From an uncultured Polyangiaceae bacterium (lineage in GTDB: Bacteria; Myxococcota_A; Polyangia; Polyangiales; Polyangiaceae), in assembly GCA_964467935.1 (NCBI GenBank), contig CAYYKK010000064.1, positions 1 through 28,367 of the forward strand: a DNA stretch of 28,367 bases, in the 5' to 3' direction. Shown piece after piece: positions 2,692 through 24,600 of the stretch; within the stretch, counting starts at the first letter, position 1; the number at the start of each line of letters is the position of its first letter. Under the pieces are notes generated by a model, which ran no database searches, was not told the DNA's origin, and saw only the letters and a list, made by a program, of their open reading frames with translations. The position numbers and the translations under genes are program-made.

Positions 2692-2776
2692 GTCTTTGCG
2701 CGTGACCGAGGCGTCGCGCGGGGACGAGATGGCCCTCGACCTCTCCGTCGCTTCCTGGTCCCATCGAGGAGGGTCG

Positions 2777-3211
2777 ATGAGCGTCTACTACGTGAACGAG
2801 GCGGCGTTCGAGATCGACGATGCGGCGTTCGACGACCGGACGGTGCACGTGCTCGCGTCGCGCGAGGAGCTCGAGGGAGACGTCAGTCTGCTCGTCTCGA
2901 GGAGCCGCTACCGCCCCGGCGAGTCGCTCCTCGACAACGTGGCGCGCCACCTGGAGCGCGAGAGGCGTTCGTTCGCGGGATACCGCCAGCTCGACCTTCG
3001 TCAGCTCCGTGTCGACGGGGCGCCCGCGGTCGACGTCTCGACGCGATGGCGCGGCGCCGCCGGCCTCGTCTACCAACGCCAGGTCCACATCGGCCTCGAG
3101 CGCGTCGTGCTCTTGGTCGTCGCGACGGGATCGGTGGCGGAACGAGAGGCGTGCGACGCTCACGTCGAGCGCGCCTTGCGGACGTTTCGAGCACGCGAGG
3201 AGGGAACATGA
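2777..3211 (+). CDS. DUF1795-family protein (EagT6/EagR/DcrB-like effector-associated chaperone fold), 144 aa
   Basis: ATG at 2777 with SD gaggaggg 4 nt upstream. The track's longer 2696 start is N-terminal junk. MSVYYVNEAAFEIDDAAFDDRTVHVLA...SLLVSRSRYRPGESLLDNVARHL...FAGYRQLDLRQLRVDGAPAVDVSTRWRGAAGLVYQRQVHIGLERVVLLVVAT is colinear with the EagT6/DcrB pattern (x-NEG-f-LPD-W-D-sVNVL ... SLvISRD-lp-g-s ... GYqLLeqr-v-dGrpA ... QrQVyl-lgeR-lvLtaT). The stop overlaps the next gene's ATG (ATGA). Confidence 0.7.
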   Translation: MSVYYVNEAAFEIDDAAFDDRTVHVLASREELEGDVSLLVSRSRYRPGESLLDNVARHLERERRSFAGYRQLDLRQLRVDGAPAVDVSTRWRGAAGLVYQRQVHIGLERVVLLVVATGSVAEREACDAHVERALRTFRAREEGT

Positions 3212-4452
3212 CCGGAAAGCACCACGCCGCCCCGAAGGCGAAGCAGAAGGCGCCCGCGAAGAGCCCCGAGGCCAAGACGCCGCCGAAGAAGAAGAAGAGC
3301 ACGCGACACTTGGCGGTGAAGTACGAGAGCGACGGGATGAGCATCGCGGAGTTCGAGAAGCTCTCCGCGAAGAAGAAGGGCACGAGCGTCGAGGAGTGGC
3401 GCAAGAGCTCGCTCGACGCCTTGAAGAAGGCGGGCAAGGGCAGCGATCTCGCGACGGCCGCCAAGTTCCTGGAAGATCGGAGCTGGACCGACATGACGAA
3501 GAACCCGGAGGGCGACGATGGCGCGATGAAGAGCCTCCTCGACACCGCCGGCTATTCGAAGGCGAAGGGCGATCTGCCGACCCAGCGCGCCTTCTGGAAA
3601 TACCTCTACGACCGCAAGCTCGCGCTCGAGGCCGACTGGCAATACAAGACGAGCGTGTCGTTCGTGACGAAGGACGCGAAGGGCAAAGTCACCGAGCGCG
3701 CCTATGCGGACACGTCGAAGCTCCCCAGCCTCGCGAGGCACGCCGGCGCGACGAACCAGAAGCTCGGGTCGTTCATGAAGATCGTGACCGACAAGGATCC
3801 CGACAACCCGCTTCGTTATGCCCGAATCCTCGACAGCGGCACGCTCGAGCGATCGGAGGCCGAGGTCGGCATGGGCGCGGCGCGCAACCTCGGTGACGCG
3901 TCACCGAACCCCGCGATCGGCCCGACCGACTCGCTGCTCGAGAAGGCGGACGTGTCGACCGTCGCCGCCAATCCAGTGAGCCAAACCGAGTTTCCGATGG
4001 ATGGCATGCTCGACAACGAGCACACCCAATACGCCGGCTGGCTCGCCGAGAACAAGGGCGCGTCGTACGACGATGTCTCGACGAATACCGCTTTGTCGAA
4101 GACCATGGACAAGTACAAGGACGATAAGGCCTTTACCGACTACAAGAAGAAGGTCCAGGACGCGCTCAAGAAGCAGGCCGACGACGCCGCGGCCGGCGAC
4201 CGGGTCGAAAAGGGTGAGAAGACCCGCGTCTTCGTCGGCGAAGAGAAGCGCGAGCTCGCGACGAAGGGCGCCATCACGCAATCCGGCGATCAGCTCAAGG
4301 AGGGTGTCCGGGGCGTCTACGCGGGGAAGAACGGAAAGCCCGTCGCCGTGGTGGGCAGCGGGACGGTGCGCGGCAAGGGCGTGAAGAACGGCGCCGTCCA
4401 CGTCGAGGTGGGCGGCCCCGACACGACCGAAGAGGCGCGGCCTCCCCGCTGA
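3208..4452 (+). CDS. Hypothetical lysine-rich cytoplasmic protein (414 aa) with a histone-H1-like N-terminal tail containing SPKK/TPKK-type motifs
   Basis: ATG at 3208 is preceded by gaggaggg. The start overlaps the DUF1795 stop by 4 nt (ATGA), so the two are translationally coupled. N-terminus: MTGKHHAAPKAKQKAPAKSPEAKTPPKKKKSTRH. The rest is K/D/E-rich with no signal peptide and no TM. GC is visibly lower than the flanks (many aag/gac/tac runs). I recognise no catalytic motif. Confidence 0.6.
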   Translation: MTGKHHAAPKAKQKAPAKSPEAKTPPKKKKSTRHLAVKYESDGMSIAEFEKLSAKKKGTSVEEWRKSSLDALKKAGKGSDLATAAKFLEDRSWTDMTKNPEGDDGAMKSLLDTAGYSKAKGDLPTQRAFWKYLYDRKLALEADWQYKTSVSFVTKDAKGKVTERAYADTSKLPSLARHAGATNQKLGSFMKIVTDKDPDNPLRYARILDSGTLERSEAEVGMGAARNLGDASPNPAIGPTDSLLEKADVSTVAANPVSQTEFPMDGMLDNEHTQYAGWLAENKGASYDDVSTNTALSKTMDKYKDDKAFTDYKKKVQDALKKQADDAAAGDRVEKGEKTRVFVGEEKRELATKGAITQSGDQLKEGVRGVYAGKNGKPVAVVGSGTVRGKGVKNGAVHVEVGGPDTTEEARPPR

Positions 4453-4465
4453 GCACGGCGTCGGC

Positions 4466-7400
4466 TCAGGCGGGCTCGAACAGGATCGGCTCGCGCGCCA
4501 GGACGAACTGGCGGACGAGCTGCTGCGCGTCCGGCGAGAGATCGGCGAAGCGCGCGCCGAAGCCGGGCTGCGTCCACGGAGGCCCCTTGTCCCCCGCCGG
4601 ACGGCTCCACTCGACGACGCCGAGCGTCTCGAGCTCGACGCCGCCCGGGAGGCTCATGCGGAGCGCGACCGTCGACCCGAGGTTCGGCGCCGGACGATAG
4701 GACGCGACGAACACGCCGCCCTCGCGCACGACGTCGCCGTTCTTCCTCCAACGATAGAAGTTCGAGGCGCTCTCGAGATCGATCGCGGCGTCGTAGCGCG
4801 GGTGATTGCCCGCGACCGCCGCCGCCGCCTGACCGATGCGACCCTGGAGGCCCTTCACGAGGCTCGTCAGCTCGCCGAGCCGCTGCTCGACGCGCTGTAC
4901 GGCCGCGCCGACCTCCGGCCCCGTGCCCTGGGAGCGCGCTTGTGCAATGGCCTGTTGCGCTCTTGCAATGGCCTCGTTCTCCTCGGCGCTCGCGCCGGGT
5001 CGCTGCACGAGCGCGCCTTGCCCGTGACCAGGCGGAGGCGGCGCCGCGGCAGGACCGAACCCCGGCAGGCCGATCTGCCCCGGCGGTATCGTCGGCGGCC
5101 GCATCGCCGCGTCGCGCGCCATCTGCTGCGCGTGCTGCGCGACTTGCTGCGCTTGCTGGGCGACCTGTTGGGCCTGCTGCAGCCCCGCCTGCTGCGTCGC
5201 GACGACCTGCCTCGCCATCTGCTGCGCAGCGATCACCGCGTTCTGCGTCTCTCGCGCGACCTGCTCGGCCTCGCGCAGCGCCACCGCCTGCGCGGCTTGT
5301 TGACCGGCGATCTGCGCGCTCGCCTGCGACACCGCGCGCACCTGCGCGGTCGCCTCCGAGACCGCCTCGGAGAGCGCGGCGGCCTGCGCCTCGCTCTCGA
5401 GCCTCGCGTGCGCGCCCGCCTGCGCGAGGCTCTGCGCGAGCGCGTGAACCACGGGCGCGAGGGACGACTCCACCGTCCCGAGCTGCTGCGCGAGGAGCTC
5501 GGCGATCGCGGGGTCGCGCTCGACCTTCACCATCAGCTCCCTCGACGCGAGCTCGGCGAGCGCGGCGTGGAGCTTGTCGAGCTCCTTCGCGACCATCTCC
5601 GCGGGCGTCCTCTGCTGCGCGACCGCCTGGTTCAGCGTCTTGCCGATCCCGTCGAGCTGCGAGCCGAGCGTCCCGAGCGCGCCGGTGACGCGCGCGACGG
5701 GGTCGTCGTCCTTGCCGCCCATCATCTTCACGCGCACGAAGCCCTTCTTGATCTCCTCCCAGCGCCTCGCGCCCTCCTCGGAGAGCCGCCCGCGCATCGA
5801 CGCGAGCTTGAGGAGGTTCTGCTCCGCCCCGGTCGTCAGCGTCTGCGACTCGCCCGCGTAGTGATCGTCGATGAGCGAGTCGACCTCGGCCTCCGTGTGC
5901 GCGGCGACGATCTTCTCCGCGATCTTGTTCATGTTGCGGTAGCTGCCCTGGAGCTTGAACGGAGGCTCGGTGCGGTAGGCGTCGTCCTGCGACGCGGACG
6001 CGATGTACTCGAGATTGACCTGCAACAGCACCTTTTGAACGCGAGAGAGGCGCCTCAGCACCTCGACCATCTCGTTCACCTCGGCGGCCGAATAAGGGTA
6101 CGCGAGCTCGGAGACCGGGATGGCCTCGCCCTCCGACATGCGGATGATCTTGTGGATGTCGGCGGGCTCACGACCCGAGAGCGACGCGAGCGCCTTGTTG
6201 GAGGTGAGCGCGTTCTCGATGTAGCTGAGCGCGAAGAGGTGGTCCTTGCCCTCGAGGATGTCGCCGAGGTTGTACGTGTCGGCGCGGTTCGCGAGCATGT
6301 CGGGGATCTTGAACTTGTCGCCGCTCTCCGTGTACGGGTTGCCCGCCATCACGACGCAGAACTTCTTGCCGCGCAGATCGTAGGTCCGCGTCCGCTTCTT
6401 CCAGACGCCCTCGATGCGGCGCTGCGCGTCGCAGAGCGAGATGAACTTCTGCAAGAGCTCGGGGTGCGTGTGCTGGATGTCGTCGAGATAGAGCATCACG
6501 TTGTTGCCCATCTCGAGCGCGAGGTTGATCTTGTCGACCTCCTGACGCGCGGTCGCGTTCGGCGCCTCTTCGGGGTCGAGCGAGCGGACGTCGTGGCCGA
6601 GCGCGGGGCCGTTCACCTTCATGAAGATGAGGCCGAGCTTGTTCGCCACGTACTCCATGAGGGTCGTCTTGCCGTACCCGGGCGGCGAGATGAGCAGGAG
6701 CAGGCCCATCAGATCGGTGCGCTTCGAGTCGCCCGCGGCGCCCATCTGCTTGGCGAGGTTGTCGCCGACGAGCGGGAGGTACACCTCGTCGATGAGGCGG
6801 TTGCGGACGAACGACGAGAGGATGCGCGGCGTGAACTCGTCGAGCCGGAGGCGCCGGCGCTCGCGCTCGAGCAGCTCTTGCTTGGTCTTTCGGAACGCGC
6901 GGAAGCGCGGGACGCGCTCGACCATGGTCCGCTCGAGCCGACCGAGGAAGGCGTCGAGGCGGATCGTCAGCGACTGGTTCTGGATGAGCGGGTGCTGTCC
7001 GAGGAGCCCCGACGCGACCGACTCGACGACCGCGGACGAGGGTTCCCGCTCGATGCGCCGATCGGTCGCGACGAGCACGCACGCCTCGAGCAGCGCCTGC
7101 GCGTGGGAGGTGAGGTCGGCGTGACGAGCGACGAGCGCCTCGAGCCACGCTCTCACGAGGCCGAGGCGCTCGGCCGGGTGCTTCTCGAGGAAGCGGAGGT
7201 CCTCGTCGAAATCGCGTCGCGCGCTCGCGCGATCGATCTCGGACGAGAGCGCGTCCCTCAGCGTCGTGGCGGAGGCCGACGTGACGAAGCGCGGGCGCTC
7301 GGCCGAGAGCTCCTCGACGAGGTAGCGCGCCGAGACCCGCACGGTCGCGTCGTCGACGGGGACGCGCTCGCCGGCGACGACGATCTCGAAGCGGTGGAGC

Positions 7401-10400
7401 TCGGCGGCGACCCGCAGGTCGCGCTCCACCTCGCGCGCGAGATCGTCCTGCGCGCGTGACGACGCGAGGCGCTCCTTGAGGCGGCCGAAGCTCCGCGCGC
7501 GCCGCGAGAGCAGCCCGCGCTCGACCTCGCCGAGGCTCGCCCACGTGAGGCACGCGAGCGCGCGCGCGTCGCCGCCGTAGCGCAGCAGGCCCGAGGCCTT
7601 CTTCATCGCGACGAGCTTCTCGAGGATGATCGCCGCGTCGACGTCGTGCACGCCGCGCTCGTAGCCCTCCTCGTGTCGATCCTGCGCGTAGGCGCGCACG
7701 ACCTCGAGGATGCCGTTCGGGCGGGTCCCCGCCTCCGTGAGCGACGCGAGCGAGAGGCCGCCCTCGCCCTTCTCCGCGGCGAAGAACACGCTCGCGGCGA
7801 GGTACTCGCCTCGGTAGACGTCGGCGCTCTCCGACGGGAGCGATTGGTCCCACAGATCGCGCGACGCCTCGAGCAGCGGATCCTCGATGCGCTCGTAGAA
7901 GTCCGTGCCCGTGATGTGCGTGTATTGGACGTCGAGCCCCGCGCCCTCGTCGCGACGCGGGACGAGCGCGAGCTCGACGGGCTGCGTGTTGACGTTGAAG
8001 CGGTGCTTGCCGAGCTTGATGACGTCGGCGCCGCCGTCGAAGAGCTCGGTCTTGTCGCGGAGGGCGCGGAGCGCGTCCTGCCTCGCGCTCTTGAGCTTCG
8101 CTTCGACCTCGTCGCCCTTCACCGTGGCGCCGATCGCGAAGAGCTGCTGCGTCAGATCCCGGAGCTTCAGGATCATCGCGTCGGAGGCGAAGTACGTGTT
8201 GAGCTCGTCCGCCGAGGAGAGCGTGCGCGACTTGCGGACGACGCCGGCGATGATGCGCTCGGCCGCGCCCAGGATGTTCTGCGCGCGCTTCTGGCGCTCG
8301 TCGAGCAGCTGCTGACGCTTCGCCGCGATCGCCTCGGTCACCTCTTCGCGCTTCTGCGTGAGCTCGCCGATGAACTCGTCGAACTCGCTGAACTTGCCCT
8401 CGAGCTCCTCGAGCCCGAGGAGCAGGCGCGACAGCTCCGCGTCGCATTTCTCCGGCGTGTCGCAGAGCGCGAGCGCGCTCGTCACGCTCTGCCCGAAGAG
8501 CTTGAACTGCGCGACGAACTCGCCCTTGCCCTCGGCGCTCGAGAGCTCCTTCTTGCGGGCCGCGAGGGTCGCGCGCGCGCGGTTCAGCTGTGAGAAGGCC
8601 TCGCTGATGCCTTCGAGGATGCGCGTCCGCTGCGTCGGGTCCTCGATGTTGAGGCCGTTGATGACGTCCGAGAGGACCGTGAGCCCCTCGCCGACGCGAT
8701 CGACGTCCTCGCGGTGCGGCTTGAGCTCGGTCGCCTTCTTCGCGACGCCGACCTTGTCGACCACGTCGCCGAGGCGCTTCACGAGGGGCGCGAGCGCGGT
8801 CGGCGTCAGGAGGAACGCGACGCACGACTTCGAGACGAGCTCGAACTCCTCGACGACGCGCTTCTCGAGGCCGTCGACCTTCGCGAGGTCCATGTACCTC
8901 ATCTCCTTCAAGGTGATGAGCTGACCGCGTTGCTTGCGGAGATCGCTGAGCGCCCCCATGAACTCTTCGACCGAGCGCATGTCGTCGGGCCGGAGCCCGA
9001 GGAAGAGCTTGTCCTGCGAGTCCTCGGCGGCCGCGAGCGCCTCGGTCGCCCGCTTTCGAATGGCGGCGACCTTCTCGAACTCGTCGATGATGCTCTCGGC
9101 GGTCTTCTTGAGCGCCGAGATCGCCTCCGCGACGTTGCCCGCCTCTTCGTGCGCGACCCAATGGTGGGCGTCCATGATGCGGCGCGCCGTCGCGATGACG
9201 TCCTCGTAGCTCTGCCGCGTCGGCGTCTCCGACAGCGCGACACGCTGGAGCGTGAGCATCTCCGAGATGCCACGGACGAGCTCGGCGTTGCCGAGCTTCG
9301 CGAGGTACGAGCCGTCGGTCGGCGCGGCGGCGGCGAACTCCTGCGTGCAGAAGGGCGTCTGCCAGATCTGCATCGGGTGCACCTTGCTCGCCTCGTCCGT
9401 CAGGGTGCGGAACACGATCATCTTGCCGTCGTCGAAGACCGAGTACCCCTGGCAGAGCAGCGGGTTCTGCACCTCTTTGCGGATGAGGTTGTACGGCAGG
9501 AGCAGGTAGAAGCCGTCCTCGACGCGCTCGAAGACGTAGAGGATGTCCTCGCCGTTCGGCGACTTGATCGCCCGCCGAAACGTGAGGCCGCGGCTGTCGC
9601 CGTCGAAGACCTTGTACTCGCCCGTCCGCAGGTAGTAGCCGCCGGGGAAGATGATCCCCTGGTCCTCGGGGAGCGACACGCACGCCGACTCGATCGAGTC
9701 GATGCGGACGACGCCTTGGGTGCGCGTGTTGAACACGAGATACCGGTAGGCGTTCTCCCGGTACGGCTTGATCTTGAGCAGGATGAGCGCGCCGAGCTTG
9801 ACGTACGCGATGTCCGAGTCGTCGAGCGACTGGTTCGCGTCCTCGACCGGCTCGCGGTAGATCCCGCGACCGTCCTTCGTGTTGTTCTCGATCTTGACCG
9901 TGAGATCACCGCCCACGGTCTCGACGAACACCTCGTCGAGGATCGAAAAATGCGGGTTCTCACCGGGGACTTGATCGTCGCGCGTGCACGGCGTCCAGAC
10001 GAAGTCGTGCTGCTTCGGGGGCGCGAAGTCCTCCTCGCCGCGCGAGTCGATGAAGACGATGTTGCCGGCCTTGTCGATCCCCCAGCGGAAGATCTTCCGA
10101 TCGCTCGGCGACGCGCCGATCTGGAAGACGGCGAGCAGACGCGTGTCGGAGCGCTGGATCTGCAGCAGCTTCGCCTCACGCGTGTAGCGGTAGAGGTCCG
10201 AGAACTCCTTCACGAACGCCGGGTCGGCGAGGTAGTGGCCGGGCTCGATCGGCAGCTGCGGGAGCTCGAACGTCGTGTCCGTCTGACGGAGCTCGTGGAC
10301 GGCGAACACGTCCGAGACGAGCGTCTCCGTCTTGAGGCCGATGAAGACGTTGAAGCCGAAGAGCAGCTTGCCCTGCACCTGGCGGATGTCGCGCGGGACG

Positions 10401-10615
10401 CAGTTGTTCTCGGTCCGCACGCGCTCGGTCGCGAGGAGCGCGAGCTGCGAGGCGCCGAACACCTCGGTGCGGCGCGTGTTCAGCCACTCGGCTTTCTTGC
10501 CGAGCGCGGCCGCCTGCTCGATGAGGCGGCCGCGAATGACGTCGTAGCTGCCGCCTTCGAGCGCCTCGGCGCCCTCGGCGGGCGCCTCGCCGGCTGTCTT
10601 GTCGCCCTCGGCCAT
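4466..10615 (-). CDS. Giant multidomain protein (2049 aa): N-terminal beta-rich region, long helical regions, one MoxR/AAA_5-type AAA+ ATPase module, a Q/A-rich coiled-coil-like tract, and a C-terminal PilZ-like domain of the myxobacterial TIGR02266 type
   Basis: Walker A LLLISPPGYGKTTLMEY (revcomp of about 6670..6705). Walker B MLYLDDIQH (about 6470..6500). Sensor-1-like VVMAGNPYTESGDKFKIPDMLANRAD. Q/A repeats AQQAGLQQAQQVAQQAQQVAQHAQQMA. The C-terminus NFYRWRKNGDVVREGGVFVASYRPAPNLGSTVALRMSLPGGVELETLGVVEWSRP...GFGARFADLSPDAQQLVRQFV matches the GG-FV...LP-G....G-VVW...G-G-rF..L pattern of TIGR02266/PilZ-like domains. The ATG at 10615 lies 12 nt after the flotillin stop. Every long ORF antisense to it is a GC-frame artefact. 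Confidence 0.85.
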   Translation of the reverse strand: MAEGDKTAGEAPAEGAEALEGGSYDVIRGRLIEQAAALGKKAEWLNTRRTEVFGASQLALLATERVRTENNCVPRDIRQVQGKLLFGFNVFIGLKTETLVSDVFAVHELRQTDTTFELPQLPIEPGHYLADPAFVKEFSDLYRYTREAKLLQIQRSDTRLLAVFQIGASPSDRKIFRWGIDKAGNIVFIDSRGEEDFAPPKQHDFVWTPCTRDDQVPGENPHFSILDEVFVETVGGDLTVKIENNTKDGRGIYREPVEDANQSLDDSDIAYVKLGALILLKIKPYRENAYRYLVFNTRTQGVVRIDSIESACVSLPEDQGIIFPGGYYLRTGEYKVFDGDSRGLTFRRAIKSPNGEDILYVFERVEDGFYLLLPYNLIRKEVQNPLLCQGYSVFDDGKMIVFRTLTDEASKVHPMQIWQTPFCTQEFAAAAPTDGSYLAKLGNAELVRGISEMLTLQRVALSETPTRQSYEDVIATARRIMDAHHWVAHEEAGNVAEAISALKKTAESIIDEFEKVAAIRKRATEALAAAEDSQDKLFLGLRPDDMRSVEEFMGALSDLRKQRGQLITLKEMRYMDLAKVDGLEKRVVEEFELVSKSCVAFLLTPTALAPLVKRLGDVVDKVGVAKKATELKPHREDVDRVGEGLTVLSDVINGLNIEDPTQRTRILEGISEAFSQLNRARATLAARKKELSSAEGKGEFVAQFKLFGQSVTSALALCDTPEKCDAELSRLLLGLEELEGKFSEFDEFIGELTQKREEVTEAIAAKRQQLLDERQKRAQNILGAAERIIAGVVRKSRTLSSADELNTYFASDAMILKLRDLTQQLFAIGATVKGDEVEAKLKSARQDALRALRDKTELFDGGADVIKLGKHRFNVNTQPVELALVPRRDEGAGLDVQYTHITGTDFYERIEDPLLEASRDLWDQSLPSESADVYRGEYLAASVFFAAEKGEGGLSLASLTEAGTRPNGILEVVRAYAQDRHEEGYERGVHDVDAAIILEKLVAMKKASGLLRYGGDARALACLTWASLGEVERGLLSRRARSFGRLKERLASSRAQDDLAREVERDLRVAAELHRFEIVVAGERVPVDDATVRVSARYLVEELSAERPRFVTSASATTLRDALSSEIDRASARRDFDEDLRFLEKHPAERLGLVRAWLEALVARHADLTSHAQALLEACVLVATDRRIEREPSSAVVESVASGLLGQHPLIQNQSLTIRLDAFLGRLERTMVERVPRFRAFRKTKQELLERERRRLRLDEFTPRILSSFVRNRLIDEVYLPLVGDNLAKQMGAAGDSKRTDLMGLLLLISPPGYGKTTLMEYVANKLGLIFMKVNGPALGHDVRSLDPEEAPNATARQEVDKINLALEMGNNVMLYLDDIQHTHPELLQKFISLCDAQRRIEGVWKKRTRTYDLRGKKFCVVMAGNPYTESGDKFKIPDMLANRADTYNLGDILEGKDHLFALSYIENALTSNKALASLSGREPADIHKIIRMSEGEAIPVSELAYPYSAAEVNEMVEVLRRLSRVQKVLLQVNLEYIASASQDDAYRTEPPFKLQGSYRNMNKIAEKIVAAHTEAEVDSLIDDHYAGESQTLTTGAEQNLLKLASMRGRLSEEGARRWEEIKKGFVRVKMMGGKDDDPVARVTGALGTLGSQLDGIGKTLNQAVAQQRTPAEMVAKELDKLHAALAELASRELMVKVERDPAIAELLAQQLGTVESSLAPVVHALAQSLAQAGAHARLESEAQAAALSEAVSEATAQVRAVSQASAQIAGQQAAQAVALREAEQVARETQNAVIAAQQMARQVVATQQAGLQQAQQVAQQAQQVAQHAQQMARDAAMRPPTIPPGQIGLPGFGPAAAPPPPGHGQGALVQRPGASAEENEAIARAQQAIAQARSQGTGPEVGAAVQRVEQRLGELTSLVKGLQGRIGQAAAAVAGNHPRYDAAIDLESASNFYRWRKNGDVVREGGVFVASYRPAPNLGSTVALRMSLPGGVELETLGVVEWSRPAGDKGPPWTQPGFGARFADLSPDAQQLVRQFVLAREPILFEPA

Positions 10616-10627
10616 GACGGTGGAGCC

Positions 10628-12784
10628 TTACCGACCCGCCGACTTGAGCTGGTCGATCCCCATCTCCTTCGCGCGCGCGGCGAGGTCGGCGAGCTTCTTC
10701 CTCGCCGCGTCGTCGACGCTCGCGCCGCCCATGAGCCCCTGGATGACGCCCGAGAGGCTCGCGCCGTCGGCGCCGCCGAGGTGGTCGCCGAGCGCGGTGC
10801 GCAGCGTGTCGCTGTTCGCGAGCACGGTGTCGAACGACTGCCCGAGGCTCATCGCCTTCACGAACCGATCGAAGAACTGGCCGTCGCCGCCGACGATCTG
10901 GATCTTCGCCTCGCTGAAGGCCTCCGCGAGGATCTTCGACTGCTCCTGGGCGATGTCGCGCCTCGTCTTGAGCGTCTCCATCGCGACCTCGCGCTGGGCC
11001 TGCAGGCGGATGCGGAACTCCTCGTGCTCGCGGCTCGCCGGATCGAGCGCCTTCATCGCCGCGGCCTTCTCGGTGATGCCCGCGGCCTCCGCCATGAGCT
11101 TCTCGCGCGCGGCGTGCGCCTCGGCCATGCCGACCTTCTCGATCGCCTGCGCGTCGGCCTCGCGGACCTTCACCTTGGCGAGGCCCTTCTGCTCCTCGCC
11201 GTGCGCCTCGGCGAGCAGGCGCTCCTTCACGACGAGCGCCTCCGCGAGCCCCTTCTTCTCGATCGCGAGGGCCTCGGCCTCCGCGACGTGCACCTTGGCG
11301 AGGCCCTGCTTCTCCTCGCCCGTCGCGGTGGCCGTCAGCTTCTCGAGCGTCACGCGCGCCTCGACCATGCCCTGCTTCTCGATCGCGGCGGCGTCCGCCT
11401 CACGGACGCGGACCTGCGCGAGCCCCGCGGCCGCGTGCTCGGCCTGGACGCCCTCGGCGAGGCGGATCTTCGCGCGCGCGAGCTTGTCGGCGGCCTCGAG
11501 ATCCGCGTCGGCCGTGACGAGCTTCTCACGCGCGCGGAACTTCGCGCTCTCCTCGCTCGCCTCGGCGGCCTTCACCTGCTTCACGAGCGCCTCGGCGGCC
11601 TGCGCCTCGGCGTTGATCCGGACCGACTCCTTCAGGCGGTTCGCCTCGGCGACGACGCGCACGTCCTTGATGCGCTCCTCCTCCTCGGCGACGGTCTTGT
11701 CGACGACGATGCGCGCGCGCACCACGTCGGCGATCTCCTTCTTCTTGACCTCGATGTCCTTCTCTTTCGAGATGCGCTGCAGCTCGACCTCGCGCTCGCG
11801 CGAGAGCGCCTCGAGCTGCTGGGCCTTCTTCACGCGCTCGATCTCGACGGCGACCTCGCGCTCCTTGTTCTGGCGGGCGACGAGCACGGCGCGCTCCTTC
11901 GCCTCGTTGGCGACGAGCGACTCCTCCTCGTTCTTCGCGCGGAGGAGCAGCGTCTCCTTCTGCTCCTTCTCGGAGATGCGGGCGGCCTCGTTCTGCTCAC
12001 GCGCCTGGGCGACGGCGATCTCGCGCGCCTTCTTCGCCTCGGCCTCCGCGCGGCGCTGCTCGAACCGGAAAATCGCCTCGTCGGCGGTCAGGTTCTGGCT
12101 GCCCATCTCCATGCGCTCCTTCTGGCGGAGCTCGTTCGTCTTCACGTTCTGGATGACGGTGAGATCGGTGATCTTCCGAATGCCCTCGGAGTCCATGATG
12201 TTGTCTTTGTCGAGGGCCTCGACCGGCGTCTGCTCGAGGTAGTCGATCGCGCAGTCGTCGAGGTGGAAGCCGTTCAGATCGGTGCCGATCACCTTGATGA
12301 TCTCGTCCTTGAAGAGCTGCCGCTCCTTGTAGAGATCCTCGAAGTTCATCCCCTTGCCGACCGTCTTCAGCGCCTCGGAGAACTTCGCCGCGAAGAGCTC
12401 CTGGATGACGCGCTGATCGCTCGCGCGCGCGCAGCCGATCGCCTGCGCGACCTTGAGCACGCTGTCCGCCGTCTTGTTCACGCGCACGAAGAACGTGACC
12501 TCGATGTCCGCGCGGATGTTGTCCTTGCAGATGAGGCCGTCCTTGTTGCGGCGATCGATCGCGATCGTCTTGACGGAGATGTCCATCATCTCGGCGCGGT
12601 TGATGATCGGGTAGACGACCGCGCCCGTGAAGAACACCTGCGGCTCGTTCTTCATCGTGTTCACGATGAGGGCCGTGCCCTGATCGACCTGCCGGTAGAA
12701 CTTCGCGACGATGATGATGACCCCGAAGACGACGAGGGCGATGACGCCGACGACGATCAAGATCAAGACGAGCTGATCGGGCAT
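10628..12784 (-). CDS. Flotillin (SPFH/band-7 family, FloT/YqiK-like), 718 aa
   Basis: N-terminal TM anchor LVLILIVVGVIALVVFGVIIIVAKFY. The SPFH core runs QGTALIVNTMKNEPQVFFTGAVVYPIINRAEMMDISVKTIAIDRRNKDGLICKDNIRADIEVTFFVRV...DLYKERQLFKDEIIKVIG. The C-terminal half is E/A-rich with flotillin-type repeats (KQGLAKVHVAEAEALAIEKKGLAEA..EEQKGLAKVKVREADAQAIEKVGMAEA). I chose the ATG at 12784 because a perfect AAGGAG SD sits 9 nt upstream. The track's 12802 start is an upstream GTG. Confidence 0.9.
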   Translation of the reverse strand: MPDQLVLILIVVGVIALVVFGVIIIVAKFYRQVDQGTALIVNTMKNEPQVFFTGAVVYPIINRAEMMDISVKTIAIDRRNKDGLICKDNIRADIEVTFFVRVNKTADSVLKVAQAIGCARASDQRVIQELFAAKFSEALKTVGKGMNFEDLYKERQLFKDEIIKVIGTDLNGFHLDDCAIDYLEQTPVEALDKDNIMDSEGIRKITDLTVIQNVKTNELRQKERMEMGSQNLTADEAIFRFEQRRAEAEAKKAREIAVAQAREQNEAARISEKEQKETLLLRAKNEEESLVANEAKERAVLVARQNKEREVAVEIERVKKAQQLEALSREREVELQRISKEKDIEVKKKEIADVVRARIVVDKTVAEEEERIKDVRVVAEANRLKESVRINAEAQAAEALVKQVKAAEASEESAKFRAREKLVTADADLEAADKLARAKIRLAEGVQAEHAAAGLAQVRVREADAAAIEKQGMVEARVTLEKLTATATGEEKQGLAKVHVAEAEALAIEKKGLAEALVVKERLLAEAHGEEQKGLAKVKVREADAQAIEKVGMAEAHAAREKLMAEAAGITEKAAAMKALDPASREHEEFRIRLQAQREVAMETLKTRRDIAQEQSKILAEAFSEAKIQIVGGDGQFFDRFVKAMSLGQSFDTVLANSDTLRTALGDHLGGADGASLSGVIQGLMGGASVDDAARKKLADLAARAKEMGIDQLKSAGR

Positions 12785-12900
12785 GTGAGCGGGCTCCTTC
12801 ACGAAGGCGCGGGGAGACCGAGGCCCCCCGTGAGCGACGGGGAGAGTACATCAACTGAGACGGCCGAACAGCGCGACGGCGCGCTCGCGGTGGGCACGGC

Positions 12901-13791
12901 TCAGCGCGTCGTTTCTCGCTTGCGATCCGCGTCGACCGGCTCCGCCTCGACCTCCATCCTCGGGGCCGTCGTCGCGATGCGAGGCCGCGGGGTCGAGCCG
13001 GGAAGGTCGGGCATGCGCTCGATCGAGAAGCCCTCGGTCTCCGGATCGTAGTCGACGATCACGCACTGATCGCCCTTCTTGAGGCCCGCGCCCTCTTCGG
13101 CGCGCACCTGGAGCGTGAGACCGGCGCCGCCGTCGGCGAACGTGGCCTGCCCGAAGCGCGGCGTCACGGTGCCGGTCGACACGACCACGATCTTGCCGAG
13201 GAGGTCCTGGTGCTTCGACGCGCCCTTCTTCTCGAAGACACCGCCGAGCGGGCGGATCGCGAGCGAGGTGAGGAGCAGAGAGACCAGCGAGGCGCCGAGG
13301 AAGATCGGCAGACCGACGAGCCATCCGACGTTCCCGGTGGGCGTCAGCGTGCGAACCACGAGGCTGGAGCCGAGGAAGCCGAACGCGGCGAAGAGGGTGA
13401 GGACGACCGTGATGGGCGCGCGACGGAGGTGGAGCGCCGCGATGAAGCTCGCGAAGATCCCCTCGCCCGCAGCGTCCGTCGCGCCGTCGACGGCCCCGTC
13501 CGCGGCGCCCTTGGCGACGCCCTCGAGCGCTTGATCCGAACCGTGCAGGCCGCCGTGGAGCGCCGCGTCGGCCGCGCCGTCGAGCGCGCTGTCGGCGCCG
13601 CCGTGCAGCACGCCGTCCGCGGCGCCGTCGAGCGCGCCCTTCGCGACGCCCTCGATCGCGTGATCGCCGCCGCCGAGGAAATCGAGGTCGAGCGCGCCCA
13701 CGAGGACGAAGAGCCAATAGAGGACGGTCACGGCGAGCAGGACCGTGAACACGACCGTGGGGAAGCTGATGATGAGGTGGATGAGAGCCAT
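12901..13791 (-). CDS. NfeD/YqiJ-like membrane protein with a C-terminal OB-fold, the usual flotillin operon partner
   Basis: MALIHLIISFPTVVFTVLLAVTVLYWLFVLVGALDLDF is the TM start. An internal D/G/A/H-rich tandem repeat follows (ALDGAADGVLHGG / ALDGAADAALHGG; EGVAKGALDGA / EGVAKGAADGA). More TM helices, then a C-terminal OB-like segment KIVVVSTGTVTPRFGQATFADGGAGLTLQVRAEEGAGLKKGDQCVIVDYDPETEGFSIERM. An SD-like gagggg sits 7 nt upstream of the ATG. The gene lies directly upstream of flotillin on the same strand, as in E. coli yqiJ-yqiK and Bacillus nfeD-floT. Confidence 0.8.
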   Translation of the reverse strand: MALIHLIISFPTVVFTVLLAVTVLYWLFVLVGALDLDFLGGGDHAIEGVAKGALDGAADGVLHGGADSALDGAADAALHGGLHGSDQALEGVAKGAADGAVDGATDAAGEGIFASFIAALHLRRAPITVVLTLFAAFGFLGSSLVVRTLTPTGNVGWLVGLPIFLGASLVSLLLTSLAIRPLGGVFEKKGASKHQDLLGKIVVVSTGTVTPRFGQATFADGGAGLTLQVRAEEGAGLKKGDQCVIVDYDPETEGFSIERMPDLPGSTPRPRIATTAPRMEVEAEPVDADRKRETTR

Positions 13792-13851: not shown

Positions 13852-14574
13852 CTATCCGTGTCGGGTCTGCGGCGAGGCGCGGCTCGGGATCGTCCGGTGT
13901 CCCTCGCCGTGCGACCAGAGCCACTTCGCGAGCTCCATGGCGCGGCTCCCGTCGGCGACGCCCCGCACCCAATCACACTCGCCCGGCGTGATCGACGTGA
14001 GCACGACCAGCCTCGACTCGCATCCGTCGACGGCCGCGAGCAGCGTCTGGGCGTCGCGGCCGAACGTCGTCGTCGGCGAGAGGGGCATTCCCGCGAGCGC
14101 ACCCACGCTGCCGTCCTCGAGCACCAAGTGCCGAAGGACGGGGTCCGGCGGGAGCAGCTGCGTCACCATGCCGAAGCGCTCGATGAGGTCGAGGAGTCGA
14201 AGCTCGTCGAGGACGTAGCAGGCGGCGCACCAGAGGAGCGCGGGCACGACCCAAGAGCGAGCGAGCTCGTCGGACGAGAGCGCGAGCGCTGCCTGTTCGA
14301 GCTCGATGCCGAGCTCGAACCCGAGCGGCGCCTTTCCCGGGCCGTGCATCGACGCATCGAACGGGTGCGAGAGCCCTTCGGTGACGAAGAGCACACCTCG
14401 CTCGCGCCGGACCAGACGTATTCGCCCCAGGGCCTGGCTGGGCCAAGGCACGAGGGTCTCGCCGATGCGCTGCGGTACGACGGCTCCCACGACCCGCTCC
14501 TCCAATTCGCCGAGGTCGCGCAGGCTCCGTTCGGACTCTTTCTCGAGGGCTTGGGTGATCGACTCCGTCGCCAC
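13852..14574 (-). CDS. SUFU (suppressor-of-fused) family domain protein; bacterial SUFU domains are known as polymorphic-toxin immunity domains. Start is uncertain
   Basis: ...FVTEGLSHPFDASMHGPGKAPLGFELGIELEQ...WVVPALLWCAACYVLDELRLL...RHLVLEDGSVGALAGMPLSPTTTFGRDAQTLLAAVDGCESRLVVLTSITPGECDWVRGVADGSRAMELAKWL is colinear with the SUFU core (fGLSdL...GpsGfGFELTfRL...L..lARYV...qHmLLtED...TPFG...L.IVGvCteEl.....W.G.G.LEL), recalled from memory. The frame is open up to 15279, but that upstream stretch is antisense to the neighbouring lipoprotein gene. I chose the GTG at 14574 (M/V-ATESITQALEKE...). An ATG at 14721 would overlap the lipoprotein ATG head-to-head. The gene ends 60 nt upstream of the NfeD start. 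Confidence 0.5.
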   Translation of the reverse strand: MATESITQALEKESERSLRDLGELEERVVGAVVPQRIGETLVPWPSQALGRIRLVRRERGVLFVTEGLSHPFDASMHGPGKAPLGFELGIELEQAALALSSDELARSWVVPALLWCAACYVLDELRLLDLIERFGMVTQLLPPDPVLRHLVLEDGSVGALAGMPLSPTTTFGRDAQTLLAAVDGCESRLVVLTSITPGECDWVRGVADGSRAMELAKWLWSHGEGHRTIPSRASPQTRHG

Positions 14575-14719
14575 GCTTTCGAGCGTATCGGGGCCCGGTG
14601 GAGCTGGGTAGGGCCGCCGAGCGAAGCCTCCGCGAAGGAATGGGTACCTCGCCCACCCTTGGACCTCTTCCGCGCTCGTGTTTCCATCTTCCTCATCCTT
14701 CCTGCCTACGAGGTGTCCC

Positions 14720-15448
14720 ATGAAGCTTGCGCTCCCTTCCCTCGCCGTCTCCGCCTGTCTCGTCGTCTCCCTGACCCCGTCGCTGCTCGGCTGTAGCGGA
14801 GGCGGCGGCGCCGGGGGGGCCGGTGGAGGGACGACCTCGGCCACGACGGGCACGGGCACGACGACGGGCACCGGCTCCACCTCGTCGAGCGCGACCACGA
14901 CGTCATCCTCGGGCTCCACCACCTCGAGCTCGTCCACTGGCGGTGGCATGGCGCAGGCCGAGTGCGCGACCGCGGCGGACTGCAAGCTCGTCGACGACTG
15001 CTGCAACTGCGAGGCGATCCCGAAGACCAAGATGGATCCGCAGTGCAGCCAGCAGTGCCTGCAGAGCGCGTGCATGGCGCTCGGCGTGACGCCCACCGTC
15101 GATTGCCAGGCAGGGCGCTGCATCGCCGCGTTCGACTGCGACGGCTCCAAGGTGACGTGCCTCACGCCGCAGCCCGTGTGTCCCGCCGGAGAGACGAACC
15201 TGGTCGACGGGCTCTGCTGGACGCAGCAATGCGTGCCGGTGACCCAATGCGCGTTCGTCGACGACTGCGCGGCGTGCACGGCGACGCAGGCCTGCGTCTT
15301 TTACGGTGGCGGCATCATGAAGCGACATTGCGTCGACGTGCCGCCCGAGTGCAATGGCACGCCCTCCTGCGCGTGCATGGGGCAGATGATCTGCGGCAAC
15401 ATCCCCTGCGGCGGCACGGGCAACCAGCTCGATTGCCAGATCCCGTAG
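14720..15448 (+). CDS. Secreted cysteine-rich lipoprotein with a G/T/S-rich linker
   Basis: MKLALPSLAVSACLVVSLTPSLLGC carries a signal peptide and a lipobox L-L-G-C. An AGGTG SD lies 4 nt upstream of the ATG. Next comes GGGGAGGAGGGTTSATTGTGTTTGTGSTSSSATTTSSSGSTTSSSSTGGG, then a roughly 150-aa domain with about 28 Cys (CKLVDDCCNCEAIP...CQAGRCIAAFDCDG...CAACTATQACVFYGG...CNGTPSCACMGQMICGNIPCGG). Confidence 0.7.
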   Translation: MKLALPSLAVSACLVVSLTPSLLGCSGGGGAGGAGGGTTSATTGTGTTTGTGSTSSSATTTSSSGSTTSSSSTGGGMAQAECATAADCKLVDDCCNCEAIPKTKMDPQCSQQCLQSACMALGVTPTVDCQAGRCIAAFDCDGSKVTCLTPQPVCPAGETNLVDGLCWTQQCVPVTQCAFVDDCAACTATQACVFYGGGIMKRHCVDVPPECNGTPSCACMGQMICGNIPCGGTGNQLDCQIP

Positions 15449-21036: not shown

Positions 21037-21668
21037 GCAAACGCAATGGCTTCTTTGCATTCGAGCCTTCGCGACCGCGTCTGCTGCATCCGTCGCGCCG
21101 AGGCATCGTCGTCTTCTGCCTGTTGGGCCTCGGCGCGTGCAACACGGGTGTCTTCGCCGGGAACGACTGCGTGGACGCGGCCCAGCGCCTCGCGTCCAAG
21201 TTGCAATCATGCGGACTGTCCCAGCCGTCGGAGGCGACGGCCTCGGGCGCGGGTGGAGCGGCGCCCGTGTGTCCTCCGGACGAAGGTCAGCGGGCCAAGG
21301 CGATCGCGGACTGCACCGACGCCGCGACGTGTGAGGCGGTGATCGGAACCGACAGGGCCGGCGCCCTCCAGCTCGCTCAGTGCGTGGCGGCGGCACAACA
21401 AATGACCTCCAGCACCGGCCTGGGCGGCGTCGGGGCGAGCTCCTCGACCGGCGCGCCAAAGAGCATCGGCCCGTGCAACATTTGCGGCACCTGCAACAAC
21501 AGCGATGTCCAATGCAATTTCCCAGAGTTCGGGACGGACATCCGCGTGAACAAGGCGATGCCTTATTGGTGTGTCACGAAGGGCTGCACATTCATCGAGG
21601 CCGCGAGCGCCAGCGACCCTACCCTCGTCAACAATTGCGGCTCGGTCATCCATCAGCTGTGTCAATGA
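21033..21668 (+). CDS. Cysteine-rich lipoprotein, 211 aa
   Basis: The ATG at 21033 overlaps the upstream stop (ATGA). MSKRNGFFAFEPSRPRLLHPSRRGIVVFCLLGLGAC carries a lipobox L-G-A-C. Many Cys follow (NDCVDAAQ...SCG...PVCPPDEG...CTDAATCEAV...PCNICGTCNNSDVQCNF...WCVTKGCTF...NNCGSV..LCQ). The 3' end overlaps the kinase gene's 3' end by 23 bp (convergent). Confidence 0.6.
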   Translation: MSKRNGFFAFEPSRPRLLHPSRRGIVVFCLLGLGACNTGVFAGNDCVDAAQRLASKLQSCGLSQPSEATASGAGGAAPVCPPDEGQRAKAIADCTDAATCEAVIGTDRAGALQLAQCVAAAQQMTSSTGLGGVGASSSTGAPKSIGPCNICGTCNNSDVQCNFPEFGTDIRVNKAMPYWCVTKGCTFIEAASASDPTLVNNCGSVIHQLCQ

Positions 21669-24600
21669 CGGGCAGCGCCAGCCTCGCGAGCCCTGCGCGC
21701 GCCTCGACGGCGTCGAGGCGCATGTCGAGCTGCTCGGCGAGAGCGAGGGCTCGGCGAAGGTGCTTGTCAGCCTTCCTCGGTGTCCCGCGCGCGAGCGCGA
21801 GCTGCCCCGAGTAGAGCCAATACCTCGGTCTCGAGGCCGCGAACGAGGGCCCGAATCGGCGCAGCACCGCGATGGCGCGCTCGACCCAGCCGAGCGTGTC
21901 GTCCGAGGACTCTTTCGAGCCCGCGGCGAGCGAGAGGCCAGCCTGCGCGGCGCCCATGCAACCGTGCACTGCGTGGTAGACGCCCGGGTCTGCGCGCTCA
22001 CCGATCTCGACGGCCTCACGGAGCTTTTCGTGCGCGTCGCTCGCCCGGCCGACGCGGCTCGACGCGAGCGCGACAATTCCCGCCACCATCGTTCGGTCGG
22101 CGAGCATGGTCTCCTGCAAGACCTCCGTGGCCGCGCTGCACACGGCGAGGGCCTGCTCGGGCGCGCCGAGCGCGAGGAGCATCCGCGCCTTGTCGCAGAG
22201 CGCCCATAGCTGGGTCTGGGTGTCGCCGCGCGACAGGGCGGACGCGTACCCTTCGTCGGCGAGAGAGATCGCGCTCGCCGGGTCCCCGCGCATCGACTCG
22301 ATCTCGCAGAGGATGCTCAGGCACTCCTCGCGCCTCCGAAGCTCTCCGCAGCGCGTCGCGAATTCGAGACCCCATTTCGCCATGTGGGTCGCGCGTTCCC
22401 ATTCGGCCATTCCACAGCGATAGTAGGCTTCGACCATTCCCACCCAGGCGCAGCTCGATGGATCCTCCGAGATCGCAGCGAGCTCTTGGGATCTCCGCAA
22501 CATCCGATCGGCGAGGCCGTGGAGCGGGACGAGGCCGAGCATGGCCCCGAAAGTGGCATTTCCACGCGCCATGAGCGCTGGAGACCCGGACCGAGCGCCG
22601 AGCTCGCGCAGCCTCGTGGCCGTATGCACCAATGCGAGGTTGTCGGAGAGCAAGAAGCAGAGCCCCTCGGTCGAGCCGTAGATGTCCGCGATTCGACGAA
22701 GGCCTTCTTCGGTCGCGTCCCTACGAGGATTCTTGAAGAACCCCTTCGCCAAGCTCACGAGGGTCCGTCCTGCGAGAGCCGCACGGGACCTCGGAAAGGG
22801 GCTCCCCAGCAGCTGAAGGGCCCGCTCGTGGTGCTCCCTGCTCTCGTCGATGAGACCCACCGCATTCAATGCGGTGCCAAGCTCTCGCTCCAAGCCGGCC
22901 CGGATGGAGTCGGAGACGCCTCGATGCGCTGCCGCGACGAGTGCGGCCCGGAGCAACCTCGCGGCCTCGTGGTTCGCATAGCTCGCCGACGCTGCCTGCG
23001 CCGCGGCCTGCAGGTGGGGGAATGCCGACGCATGCTCGGCGGCCTCCATGTAATGAATGCCAATCTGGCCCGAGAGGCGGGCGCGCAGGGGGGCGCGCTC
23101 CTCCGTCTCGAGCTCTCGCTCCATCGCGACGGCCGCCGCCTTGTGGAGTCGGCCCCTGCTCTCGGGGCCGATGAGCGCGTAGACCTGCTCTCGGAGGTTG
23201 TCGTGTTCGAAGCGCCAACCTTCGCTCGCGAGCTCGAGCACACTCCGCGTGCGCAGCTCGTCGAGGCCTCGACCGAGCACGCTCGCGTCGAATGAGCCCG
23301 TCTTGGCGATGAGCGGCTCTGCGACCTGCCCCGAGAGGACGGCGACGCCCCCGGCGCCCGCGCGCGCCTCTTCCGACAGCGTCTTCAAACGCCGTGACAC
23401 GAGCTCCGCGATCGGCACCTGGCCCTCGGGAAGCACGCCGCCGGAGCGGACTTCCCAGCGTCCCTCGTCGCTGCGCCGCAGCGTGCCGGCTTCGAGGGCA
23501 GCGCGCAGATACTCCGCGACGAAGAAGGGATTTCCTCGTGACGCCCGGGCCAAGGACGACACGAGGGCGGGTGGACTGTCGGAGGCGCCGAGCATCATGG
23601 CGGCCATCGTGGGGATCACGCTCGTGTCGAGCCGCGAGAGCGGGACTTGGTCCAACCCGGGAGTGCCGAGGAGCCGATCGATCCTCGGATCGGCTTCGTC
23701 CCGCCGTGCCGCGCCGAGGATCCGAATGGGCACTCTCGCGAAGCGTTGGGTTCGAGCGACCTGCTCGACCCACGCGACCGTGACGTCGTCCGCCCATTGC
23801 AAGTCATCCAGGACGAGGAGGAGCGGGTTGGCGTCGGCCATGGCCGCGAGCGTCTCGGAGAGGGCCGCGAGGAGGCGCTGCCGAGCCGCCTCGGGGAGAA
23901 GGGGTGGGGGCAGGGGCTCCGCGTCGTCAGCCAAGTCGCCGAATTCGGGCAGGACCGCTCCGAGGACGCGGGCGCGGCCTCCGAGCAATCGCCGCGACTC
24001 GTCCACTCCCCACTCGCGAACGCGCATTGCGATCGTCGCGAGCGGGCCGATCATCGACTCGAGCGGCGTCGCCGCGGGGCGCCCGAAGCTGTGACCGCTC
24101 ATCCCCGCGCTCGATCCCGTGAGCACTCGGAGTCCCCTGCGCGAAGCGGCGCGAACGATCTCCAAGGCCAGCCGGCTCTTGCCGATGCCGCTCGGGCCCG
24201 ACAGCACGGTGACGCCGCCTTCCCCCTTCTCCAACGCGTCGAGAGACACGCCGAGCTGGCGGATCGTCTCCTCGCGACCGACGAGCCCCGGTCGGCAGAA
24301 GTGCGGCCGTGGGCGCCACTCGGCGTGGGAGGGCGGTCGTCCACCGAGGCGCACCAGGGCTCTCACCACGTCGTCCGCGTAGGCCGGGCGCGAGGTCGGG
24401 TCCTTGGCGAGCAAGCGCAAAACGAGCGCGTCGAGGTCCTTGGGTACCGCCGGCGCGCGCTCGGACGGCGGGCTCGGGGGATGGTCCAGGTGAGCACGCA
24501 AGACGGCTCGGACGGTGCCGTCGAAAGGCGGGTGCCCGGTGAGCAGCTCGTGGAGGATGCAGCCGAGCGAGTAGAGGTCTGCGCGACCGTCCACGACGGA

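Follow-up and report, generated by a model that had tools for sequence, protein, structure and literature searches.

A 2049-residue DUF3686 AAA+ protein as candidate ATPase subunit of a conserved flotillin membrane module

An uncultured bacterium of the Polyangiaceae (Myxococcota) carries, on a stretch of 28,367 nucleotides (nt) (assembly GCA_964467935.1, contig CAYYKK010000064.1, positions 1 to 28,367 of the forward strand; hereafter the window), a gene for a giant protein of 2049 amino acids (aa) with a single AAA+ module. Our analyses place this protein in a large, known family, DUF3686, which has been described computationally before. Specifically, conserved gene order combined with domain scans and structure modelling leads us to lean, with moderate confidence, towards a reading in which this protein serves as the ATPase subunit within a conserved membrane module, consisting of a YqiJ-type protein, a YqiK-type flotillin and the DUF3686 ATPase, and in which it remodels flotillin or PspA assemblies at the inner membrane. 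The ATPase most likely powers a membrane-stress module and does not act in DNA repair, the function given in its database name. The three genes of the module follow one another on the minus strand:

12901..13791, minus strand: YqiJ/YuaF-type (NfeD-like) gene, the first of the module, 296-aa product; assigned from hhalign and three hydrophobic segments
10628..12802, minus strand: YqiK-type flotillin (SPFH) gene, 724-aa product; assigned from hhalign, Band_7 matches of orthologues and a transmembrane (TM) segment
4466..10615, minus strand: AAA+ ATPase gene, ATG start, 2049 codons; open reading frame (ORF) and its translation

The arrangement of these genes was followed through 82 loci, namely the window, 80 loci sampled at one genome per species and one Chondromyces locus, which together cover Myxococcota, Actinomycetota, Gamma-, Beta- and Zetaproteobacteria, Planctomycetota and Acidobacteriota. 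Of the 77 loci whose flank exceeds 2.5 kb, 76 have a flotillin gene upstream of the ATPase gene and in the same orientation, at a median distance of ~65 nt; a YqiJ-type gene stands ahead of the flotillin gene in 75 of all 82. The three-gene arrangement is kept in Myxococcota, Actinomycetota, Proteobacteria, Planctomycetota and Acidobacteriota, among others. Unbiased clustering of all ORFs found no further partner in more than 17 of the 82 loci, the number in which a DUF2170–PspA pair lies upstream, all of them proteobacterial. When the nearest two genes on each flank of the module were scanned with Pfam at ~65 loci, those upstream encoded PspA/IM30 in 12 loci and DUF2170 in 8, and those downstream encoded PLD-like proteins in 7, rhomboids in 6 and TelA in 3; the downstream counts across loci are seven for rhomboid genes and eight for PLD genes. 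At an Oleiphilaceae locus the order reads DUF2170 (YjfI-like), PspA, YqiJ, flotillin, ATPase, rhomboid, PLD; this extended operon is recorded for L027 (5674-16736) and 16 further proteobacterial loci. A copy of the module is also present on the 425-kb Pseudomonas megaplasmid pQBR103 (L083, NC_009444.1 87136-106296), where it is annotated as "SPFH domain-containing protein" and "DNA repair ATPase" and comes immediately after genes that encode DUF2491, DUF350, DUF1190 and a glutathionylspermidine-synthase-like protein, a set that we take to resemble E. coli yjfKLMC. It is these yjfKLMC-like genes, together with the DUF2170–PspA, rhomboid and PLD neighbours, that link the module to stress.

An operon of this kind was described from comparative genomics by Ravi et al. 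2024 (mSystems, PMC11237479). That article reports a CesT/Tir-like YjfI (DUF2170)–PspA pair and, for some Proteobacteria, a PLD gene, alongside more widespread abbreviated operons without PspA, and the authors propose a role in the sub-membrane assembly of membrane-linked complexes. The window holds the same three proteins in the same order, and the pair, the PLD gene and the abbreviated forms are all reproduced in our survey. As no PspA or DUF2170 gene is present in the window, its operon is of the abbreviated form. The rhomboid gene does not figure in the available parts of the published operon description (PMC11237479). The article offers neither structure models nor a placement among the AAA+ clades, and it contains no experiments; its available parts make no mention of the lineage-specific Ala/Gln-rich tail and PilZ domain that the window ATPase bears.

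Neither membrane partner is recognised directly. The window flotillin had no match in Pfam Band_7, NCBIfam or PDB sequence searches and is thus an annotation blind spot, and the YqiJ-type protein likewise had no match when searched directly against Pfam, NCBIfam and PDB sequences; both identities come only by way of orthologue scans and hhalign comparisons with E. coli YqiK and YqiJ. For the flotillin, the family profile aligned with YqiK over 404 columns at a probability of 99.9% (E=1.6e-32), and 6 of 25 orthologues matched Pfam Band_7. The protein has one N-terminal TM segment at residues 4-40 and a long Ala/Glu-rich coiled coil, and translation probably begins at the ATG at 12784 (MPDQL...) and not at the GTG at 12802. 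For the YqiJ-type protein, the family profile reached YqiJ over 131 columns at a probability of 91.4% (E=9.3e-7), and 1 of 22 orthologues matched Pfam YqiJ_N. The 296-aa protein has three TM segments and ends in a soluble domain, and it can be assigned to the YqiJ/YuaF (NfeD-like) group with moderate confidence from its sequence. The YqiJ-type and flotillin genes are ~98 nt apart, and 12 nt separate the flotillin stop codon from the ATPase start codon. The two upstream genes thus correspond to E. coli yqiJ-yqiK, a homologous two-gene core. There are, however, two differences: no ATPase gene follows yqiK in E. coli K-12, and the window flotillin is longer than YqiK (718-724 aa vs 553 aa) and escapes Pfam Band_7.

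The ATPase ORF is a real gene. Its G+C content at the first, second and third codon positions (GC1/GC2/GC3 = 0.70/0.43/0.95) is what a true coding frame should show in DNA of ~70% G+C, and more than 5000 proteins match the whole 2049-aa query at E<=1e-10, many of them named "DNA repair ATPase" by NCBI. The closest relatives are proteins from Polyangiaceae metagenome-assembled genomes, followed by those of Sorangium, Chondromyces and Labilithrix. No TM segment was detected in the ATPase (maximum Kyte-Doolittle value over 19-residue windows, 1.49), and it is predicted to be soluble. Its parts, from the N terminus to the C terminus, are as follows:

Residues 38-485 (9161..10504, minus strand): DUF3686 domain, Pfam PF12458, 647.7 bits, E=9.7e-195
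Residues 486-859 (8039..9160, minus strand): long helical region, rich in Leu, Ala, Glu and Lys
Residues 607-690 (8546-8797, minus strand): DUF7902, Pfam PF25472, E=1.7e-23
Residues 860-1250 (6866..8038, minus strand): conserved middle region, from the structure model
Residues 1296-1450 (6266..6730, minus strand): AAA+ alpha/beta core, the only one in the model
Residues 1310-1318 (6662-6688, minus strand): Walker A, SPPGYGKTT, from the motif scan
Residues 1374-1381 (6473-6496, minus strand): Walker B, MLYLDDIQ, from the motif scan
Residues 1400-1413 (minus strand): beta-hairpin ahead of sensor 1, from the structure model
Residue Asn1426 (motif at 6332-6349, minus strand): sensor 1, in MAGNPY
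Residue R1444 (motif at 6278-6304, minus strand): candidate arginine finger, in PDMLANRAD
Residues 1451-1650 (5666..6265, minus strand): helical lid and family-specific conserved helical extension, from conservation and model helices, with the motifs YRTEPPFKLQGSYRNMNK and DDHY..E.QTLT.GAE.NLLKL
Residues 1651-1930 (4826..5665, minus strand): variable tail, 23% Ala and 16% Gln, Pro-rich near its end
Residues 1938-2039 (4499..4804, minus strand): PilZ domain, Pfam PF07238, with degenerate cyclic di-GMP (c-di-GMP) motifs

PF12458, DUF7902 and one AAA+ module that bears the family motifs are thus all present, and together they identify a DUF3686 family member. A reading of the window made earlier from the sequence alone had described one AAA+ module within the 2049 residues, and the motif scan, with one Walker A and one Walker B, agrees. 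The anatomy that it gave for the flanks, an N-terminal beta-rich part followed by long helices and, on the C-terminal side, helices, an A/Q tail and a PilZ domain, also holds. Its proposal that the N-terminal ~500 residues form a candidate novel domain does not: they are Pfam DUF3686, matched over the whole PF12458 model at a score far above the cut-off of 25 bits, and a library of 1.8 billion proteins contains 773 clusters (50% identity, E<=1e-3) with this domain, whose full-length members are mostly 1600-1900 aa long and which is already in print. The scan of the whole protein with Pfam therefore found a family, yet not a well-characterised one with a context unrelated to flotillin.

The DUF3686 domain is modelled as a divergent beta-propeller, in which a helix (residues 23-53) would be followed by ~6-7 four-stranded beta blades (59-419) and by C-terminal helices that pack back; the region has been published as beta-propeller repeats (Ravi et al. 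2024, PMC11237479). Between the propeller and the motor lie ~750 mainly helical residues. Within them, the conserved middle region is predicted to run from a small beta unit (865-909) through a helical domain of ~270 residues (913-1183) to strands at 1190-1219 and a long helix that leads into the ATPase. A second, degenerate AAA+ domain was considered for residues 860-1250 and ruled out: the model there is mainly helical, with few short strands and no Rossmann-like alpha/beta core, and no match fell in this region.

The motor itself is the most conserved part of the protein, with ~92% column identity among close homologues. The structure model of residues 860-1700 (pLDDT 88.5) places the core strands at 1305-1307, 1330-1335, 1373-1378 and 1419-1424, and the conserved helical extension after the lid reaches approximately residue 1690. 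The alignment built for structure prediction comprised 94 sequences. A GIGKT sequence at residue 1656 was examined as a second P-loop and discarded, since it sits in a modelled helix within a poorly conserved stretch. In an alignment of 42 diverse members, the window protein included, at 33-52% identity to it, S1310, P1311, P1312, G1313, Y1314, G1315, K1316 and T1317 are invariant, as are D1378, D1379, Q1381, H1382, N1426, P1427, Y1428 and R1444, and the family motifs SPPGYGKTT, LYLDDIQH and AGNPYTESG..F.IPDMLANRAD do not vary. Two traits of this motor are unusual: Walker A starts with Ser, and Walker B reads DD in place of the usual AAA+ DE. Because both are invariant in all 42 members, they are traits of the family and not signs of decay. 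Moreover, aromatic residues are absent from the loop that follows strand beta2 (GPALGH.V.SLDP), which together with the Walker B DD suggests remodelling or switching, in the manner of MoxR proteins, over processive threading.

The same features could be explained by a scaffold or tether with little turnover, in which the AAA+ module would switch with its nucleotide state and keep the propeller and the helical arms attached to the flotillin assembly. The atypical Walker motifs and the loop free of aromatic residues would suit such a device, as would the ~85% of the protein that lies outside the ATPase core. Yet all the catalytic positions expected of an active AAA+ protein are filled and invariant (Lys1316, Asp1378/Asp1379, Asn1426 and Arg1444), and it is the ATPase core, as noted above, that has been best conserved. 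We therefore regard the scaffold as unlikely.

A role in conflict with phages was also weighed, in which the giant ATPase would sense infection and, with flotillin, PLD or rhomboid proteins as effectors, trigger damage to the membrane. Defence systems often include giant ATPases that have repeat domains, the family is distributed patchily across phyla, one copy sits on pQBR103, and PLD (HKD) and rhomboid genes adjoin the module in some Proteobacteria. Against this, a search with PADLOC-DB returned for the ATPase only IetA, at E=0.0048 over the P-loop, and nothing for the flotillin or the YqiJ-type protein. The family is, moreover, rare on plasmids (13 of 72,556 records, mostly of megaplasmid or chromosome size, 0.4-12 Mb), and the linkage to PspA/YjfI stress genes points to envelope maintenance. 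An anti-phage system thus appears decidedly improbable.

A further question is to which AAA+ clade the motor belongs and whether it needs a VWA partner. MoxR proteins are ~250-500 aa long and paired with VWA partners such as CbbO, NorD and ViaA. The sequence-only reading had assigned the P-loop to the MoxR/AAA_5 type, and this assignment stands in part. As modelled, the AAA+ core has a fold closest to those of MoxR, midasin and dynein modules. At the level of sequence the MoxR assignment is weak: the Pfam matches over residues 1304-1429 are AAA (PF00004) at 27.2 bits, AAA_5 at 26.2 bits (cut-off 22) and AAA_22 at 25.4 bits, so that AAA ties with AAA_5, and the family profile of the ATPase region, compared with the PDB, reached only Rix7, NVL, p97 and RuvB, around Walker A, and no solved MoxR protein at E<=0.01. 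Foldseek matches were weak: RuvB had the lowest E-value (5.6e-5), and NorQ/CbbQ had the highest TM-scores (0.50-0.57). From strand beta2 to helix alpha2 (1336-1353), the chain forms a loop and a short helix with no helix-2 insert hairpin, in the model only. The window ATPase differs from the MoxR ATPases CbbQ (PDB 6l1q), NorQ (9qh4) and RavA: it has 2049 aa, a Walker B DD, no clear insert hairpin in the model, no significant profile match and, across the 82 loci, no VWA partner.

The absence of a VWA partner from the window, reported by the same reading, was borne out. No plausible gene in the window encodes a VWA domain, none is found in the precomputed domain lists of ~240 homologues, and none is among the 25 commonest families listed for flanking genes at ~65 loci per side. 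To present the protein as a MoxR ATPase that lacks its VWA partner is nonetheless misleading, as its conserved partners are the flotillin and the YqiJ-type protein; the flotillin link that the reading had implied is strongly supported, both by gene order and by the YqiK match. An alternative is that the protein is a MoxR-type chaperone that uses a VWA adaptor encoded elsewhere in the genome, as in RavA-ViaA, CbbQ-CbbO and NorQ-NorD, and that its linkage to flotillin is incidental. Not only do the VWA searches and the profile comparison speak against such an arrangement, but the flotillin/YqiJ linkage is near-universal across phyla and the protein brings large adaptor-like domains of its own, and we hold this alternative to be very improbable. 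Least credible of all is a DNA-repair ATPase, for which the Pfam DUF3686 text "ATPase involved in DNA repair", the NCBI product name and weak Foldseek and profile hidden Markov model matches to RuvB can be cited, but domain scans find no DNA-binding, nuclease or helicase domain and the conserved neighbours are membrane proteins in no repair-gene neighbourhood. The name "DNA repair ATPase" was apparently taken from Pfam's description of DUF3686 and, as neither domain content nor gene neighbourhood supports it, is probably a misnomer that has spread over thousands of genomes.

How a DUF3686 ATPase might act on a flotillin assembly can be outlined from these parts. The AAA+ module would form a ring, typically a hexamer, and the propeller and helical arms would dock this ring on the cytoplasmic face of the flotillin/YqiJ assembly, supplying the adaptor that MoxR proteins normally receive from a VWA partner. 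ATP hydrolysis would then assemble, disassemble or reshape flotillin oligomers, oligomers of PspA (ESCRT-III-like) or their client proteins during envelope stress. In Polyangiaceae, Sorangium and Labilithrix, the C-terminal PilZ domain may add a regulatory or adaptor input.

This PilZ domain was detected with 20.6 bits in the full-length scan and with 27.2 bits (E=5.2e-6, cut-off 22.5) when residues 1931-2049 (119 residues) were scanned alone, and the NCBIfam myxobacterial PilZ-like model TIGR02266 matched at E=5.8e-11, below its trusted cut-off. It is found in 102 of the 120 closest homologues. With the register set by eye and not by an HMM alignment, these 102 tails have a single conserved Arg (pRFd) at the RxxxR position and DVVxxGG at the D/NxSxxG position. 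Because in this register both the RxxxR and the DxSxxG motifs look degenerate, c-di-GMP binding is doubtful; an adaptor role is possible. The variable tail ahead of the domain is gapped in 38-80% of the same 120 homologues (residues 1651-1930), and most of the Ala/Gln-rich stretch is an insertion specific to the sub-lineage of the window protein.

Precedents for ATP-driven remodelling of flotillin or PspA are provided by HflK/C-FtsH and ESCRT-III-Vps4. HflK/HflC is an SPFH cage of the inner membrane around an AAA+ protease, FtsH, to which it is coupled both genetically and functionally. FtsH is, however, a membrane-anchored, classical-clade AAA protein with a protease, whereas the window ATPase is predicted to be soluble, with a MoxR-like fold and no protease domain, and its SPFH partner is, unlike HflK/HflC, a YqiK-type flotillin paired with a YqiJ/NfeD-like protein. 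The likeness to ESCRT-III (PspA/Vipp1/Snf7) with Vps4 lies in an AAA+ protein tied to a membrane-remodelling polymer, PspA being encoded in the operon in the 17 proteobacterial loci. In Bacillus subtilis, an SPFH protein is reported to recruit PspA to the membrane (PMC8581546).

Several observations weigh against an ATPase that remodels flotillin or PspA. At one Labilithrix sp. locus (L024), the 10 kb ahead of the ATPase gene contain no flotillin gene, and in three others (L008, L074 and L081) 2-6.4 kb are inserted between the flotillin and ATPase genes. The window, as stated, has no PspA gene. With Walker B as DD and not the usual DE, hydrolysis could be slow or switch-like. Flotillin–YqiJ pairs such as E. 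coli yqiJK work without this ATPase, so the ATPase would be accessory and not obligate. Finally, our literature search found no experimental data for any member of the DUF3686 ATPase family; nothing was found on DUF3686/PF12458 or "DNA repair ATPase" in connection with SPFH, and neither a P. aeruginosa SPFH paper nor a 2009 paper on SPFH evolution mentions the DUF3686 ATPase.

The surroundings of the module in the window are of other kinds. Downstream, a DcrB-like gene (2696-3211, plus strand) overlaps by 4 nt a gene at 3208-4452 (plus strand) for a 414-aa Lys-rich protein with no family match; the latter converges on the ATPase gene, 13 nt separating the two stop codons. Upstream, a 289-aa ORF (13852-14721, minus strand) lies 60 nt from the YqiJ-type gene on the same strand, with no Pfam or NCBIfam match and no counterpart in the 81 other loci, and a longer reading of it (to 15279) overlaps an opposite-strand gene for a Cys-rich lipoprotein (14678-15448). 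Farther along, the minus-strand stretch 21646-26789 contains two genes that share 4 nt: one codes for a 1175-aa Ser/Thr kinase that also has AAA_16 and TPR domains, and it runs into the end of the other, which codes for a GAF-sigma54 activator (25170-26789, minus strand).

The mechanistic function of bacterial flotillins is still debated. We tentatively suggest, as one possibility, that some bacterial flotillin assemblies have in the DUF3686 ATPase their missing "engine": a MoxR-lineage ring, with its own propeller and arms in place of a VWA adaptor, would be docked on a flotillin/YqiJ dome and would use ATP to open, disassemble or load that dome, or to remodel PspA polymers there, under the control of a PilZ gate in Polyangiaceae, Sorangium and Labilithrix. 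If this is true, then bacterial flotillins would gain an energy-dependent cycle comparable to those of ESCRT-III/Vps4 or HflK/C-FtsH, and a MoxR-lineage AAA+ protein would be working without a VWA adaptor. If the ATPase acts on the flotillin or PspA assembly, no flotillin scaffold before it would have had an energy source dedicated to it. The family offers a concrete handle on flotillin function: its ATPase is large and widespread, and its gene hardly ever occurs without a YqiK-type flotillin gene beside it.

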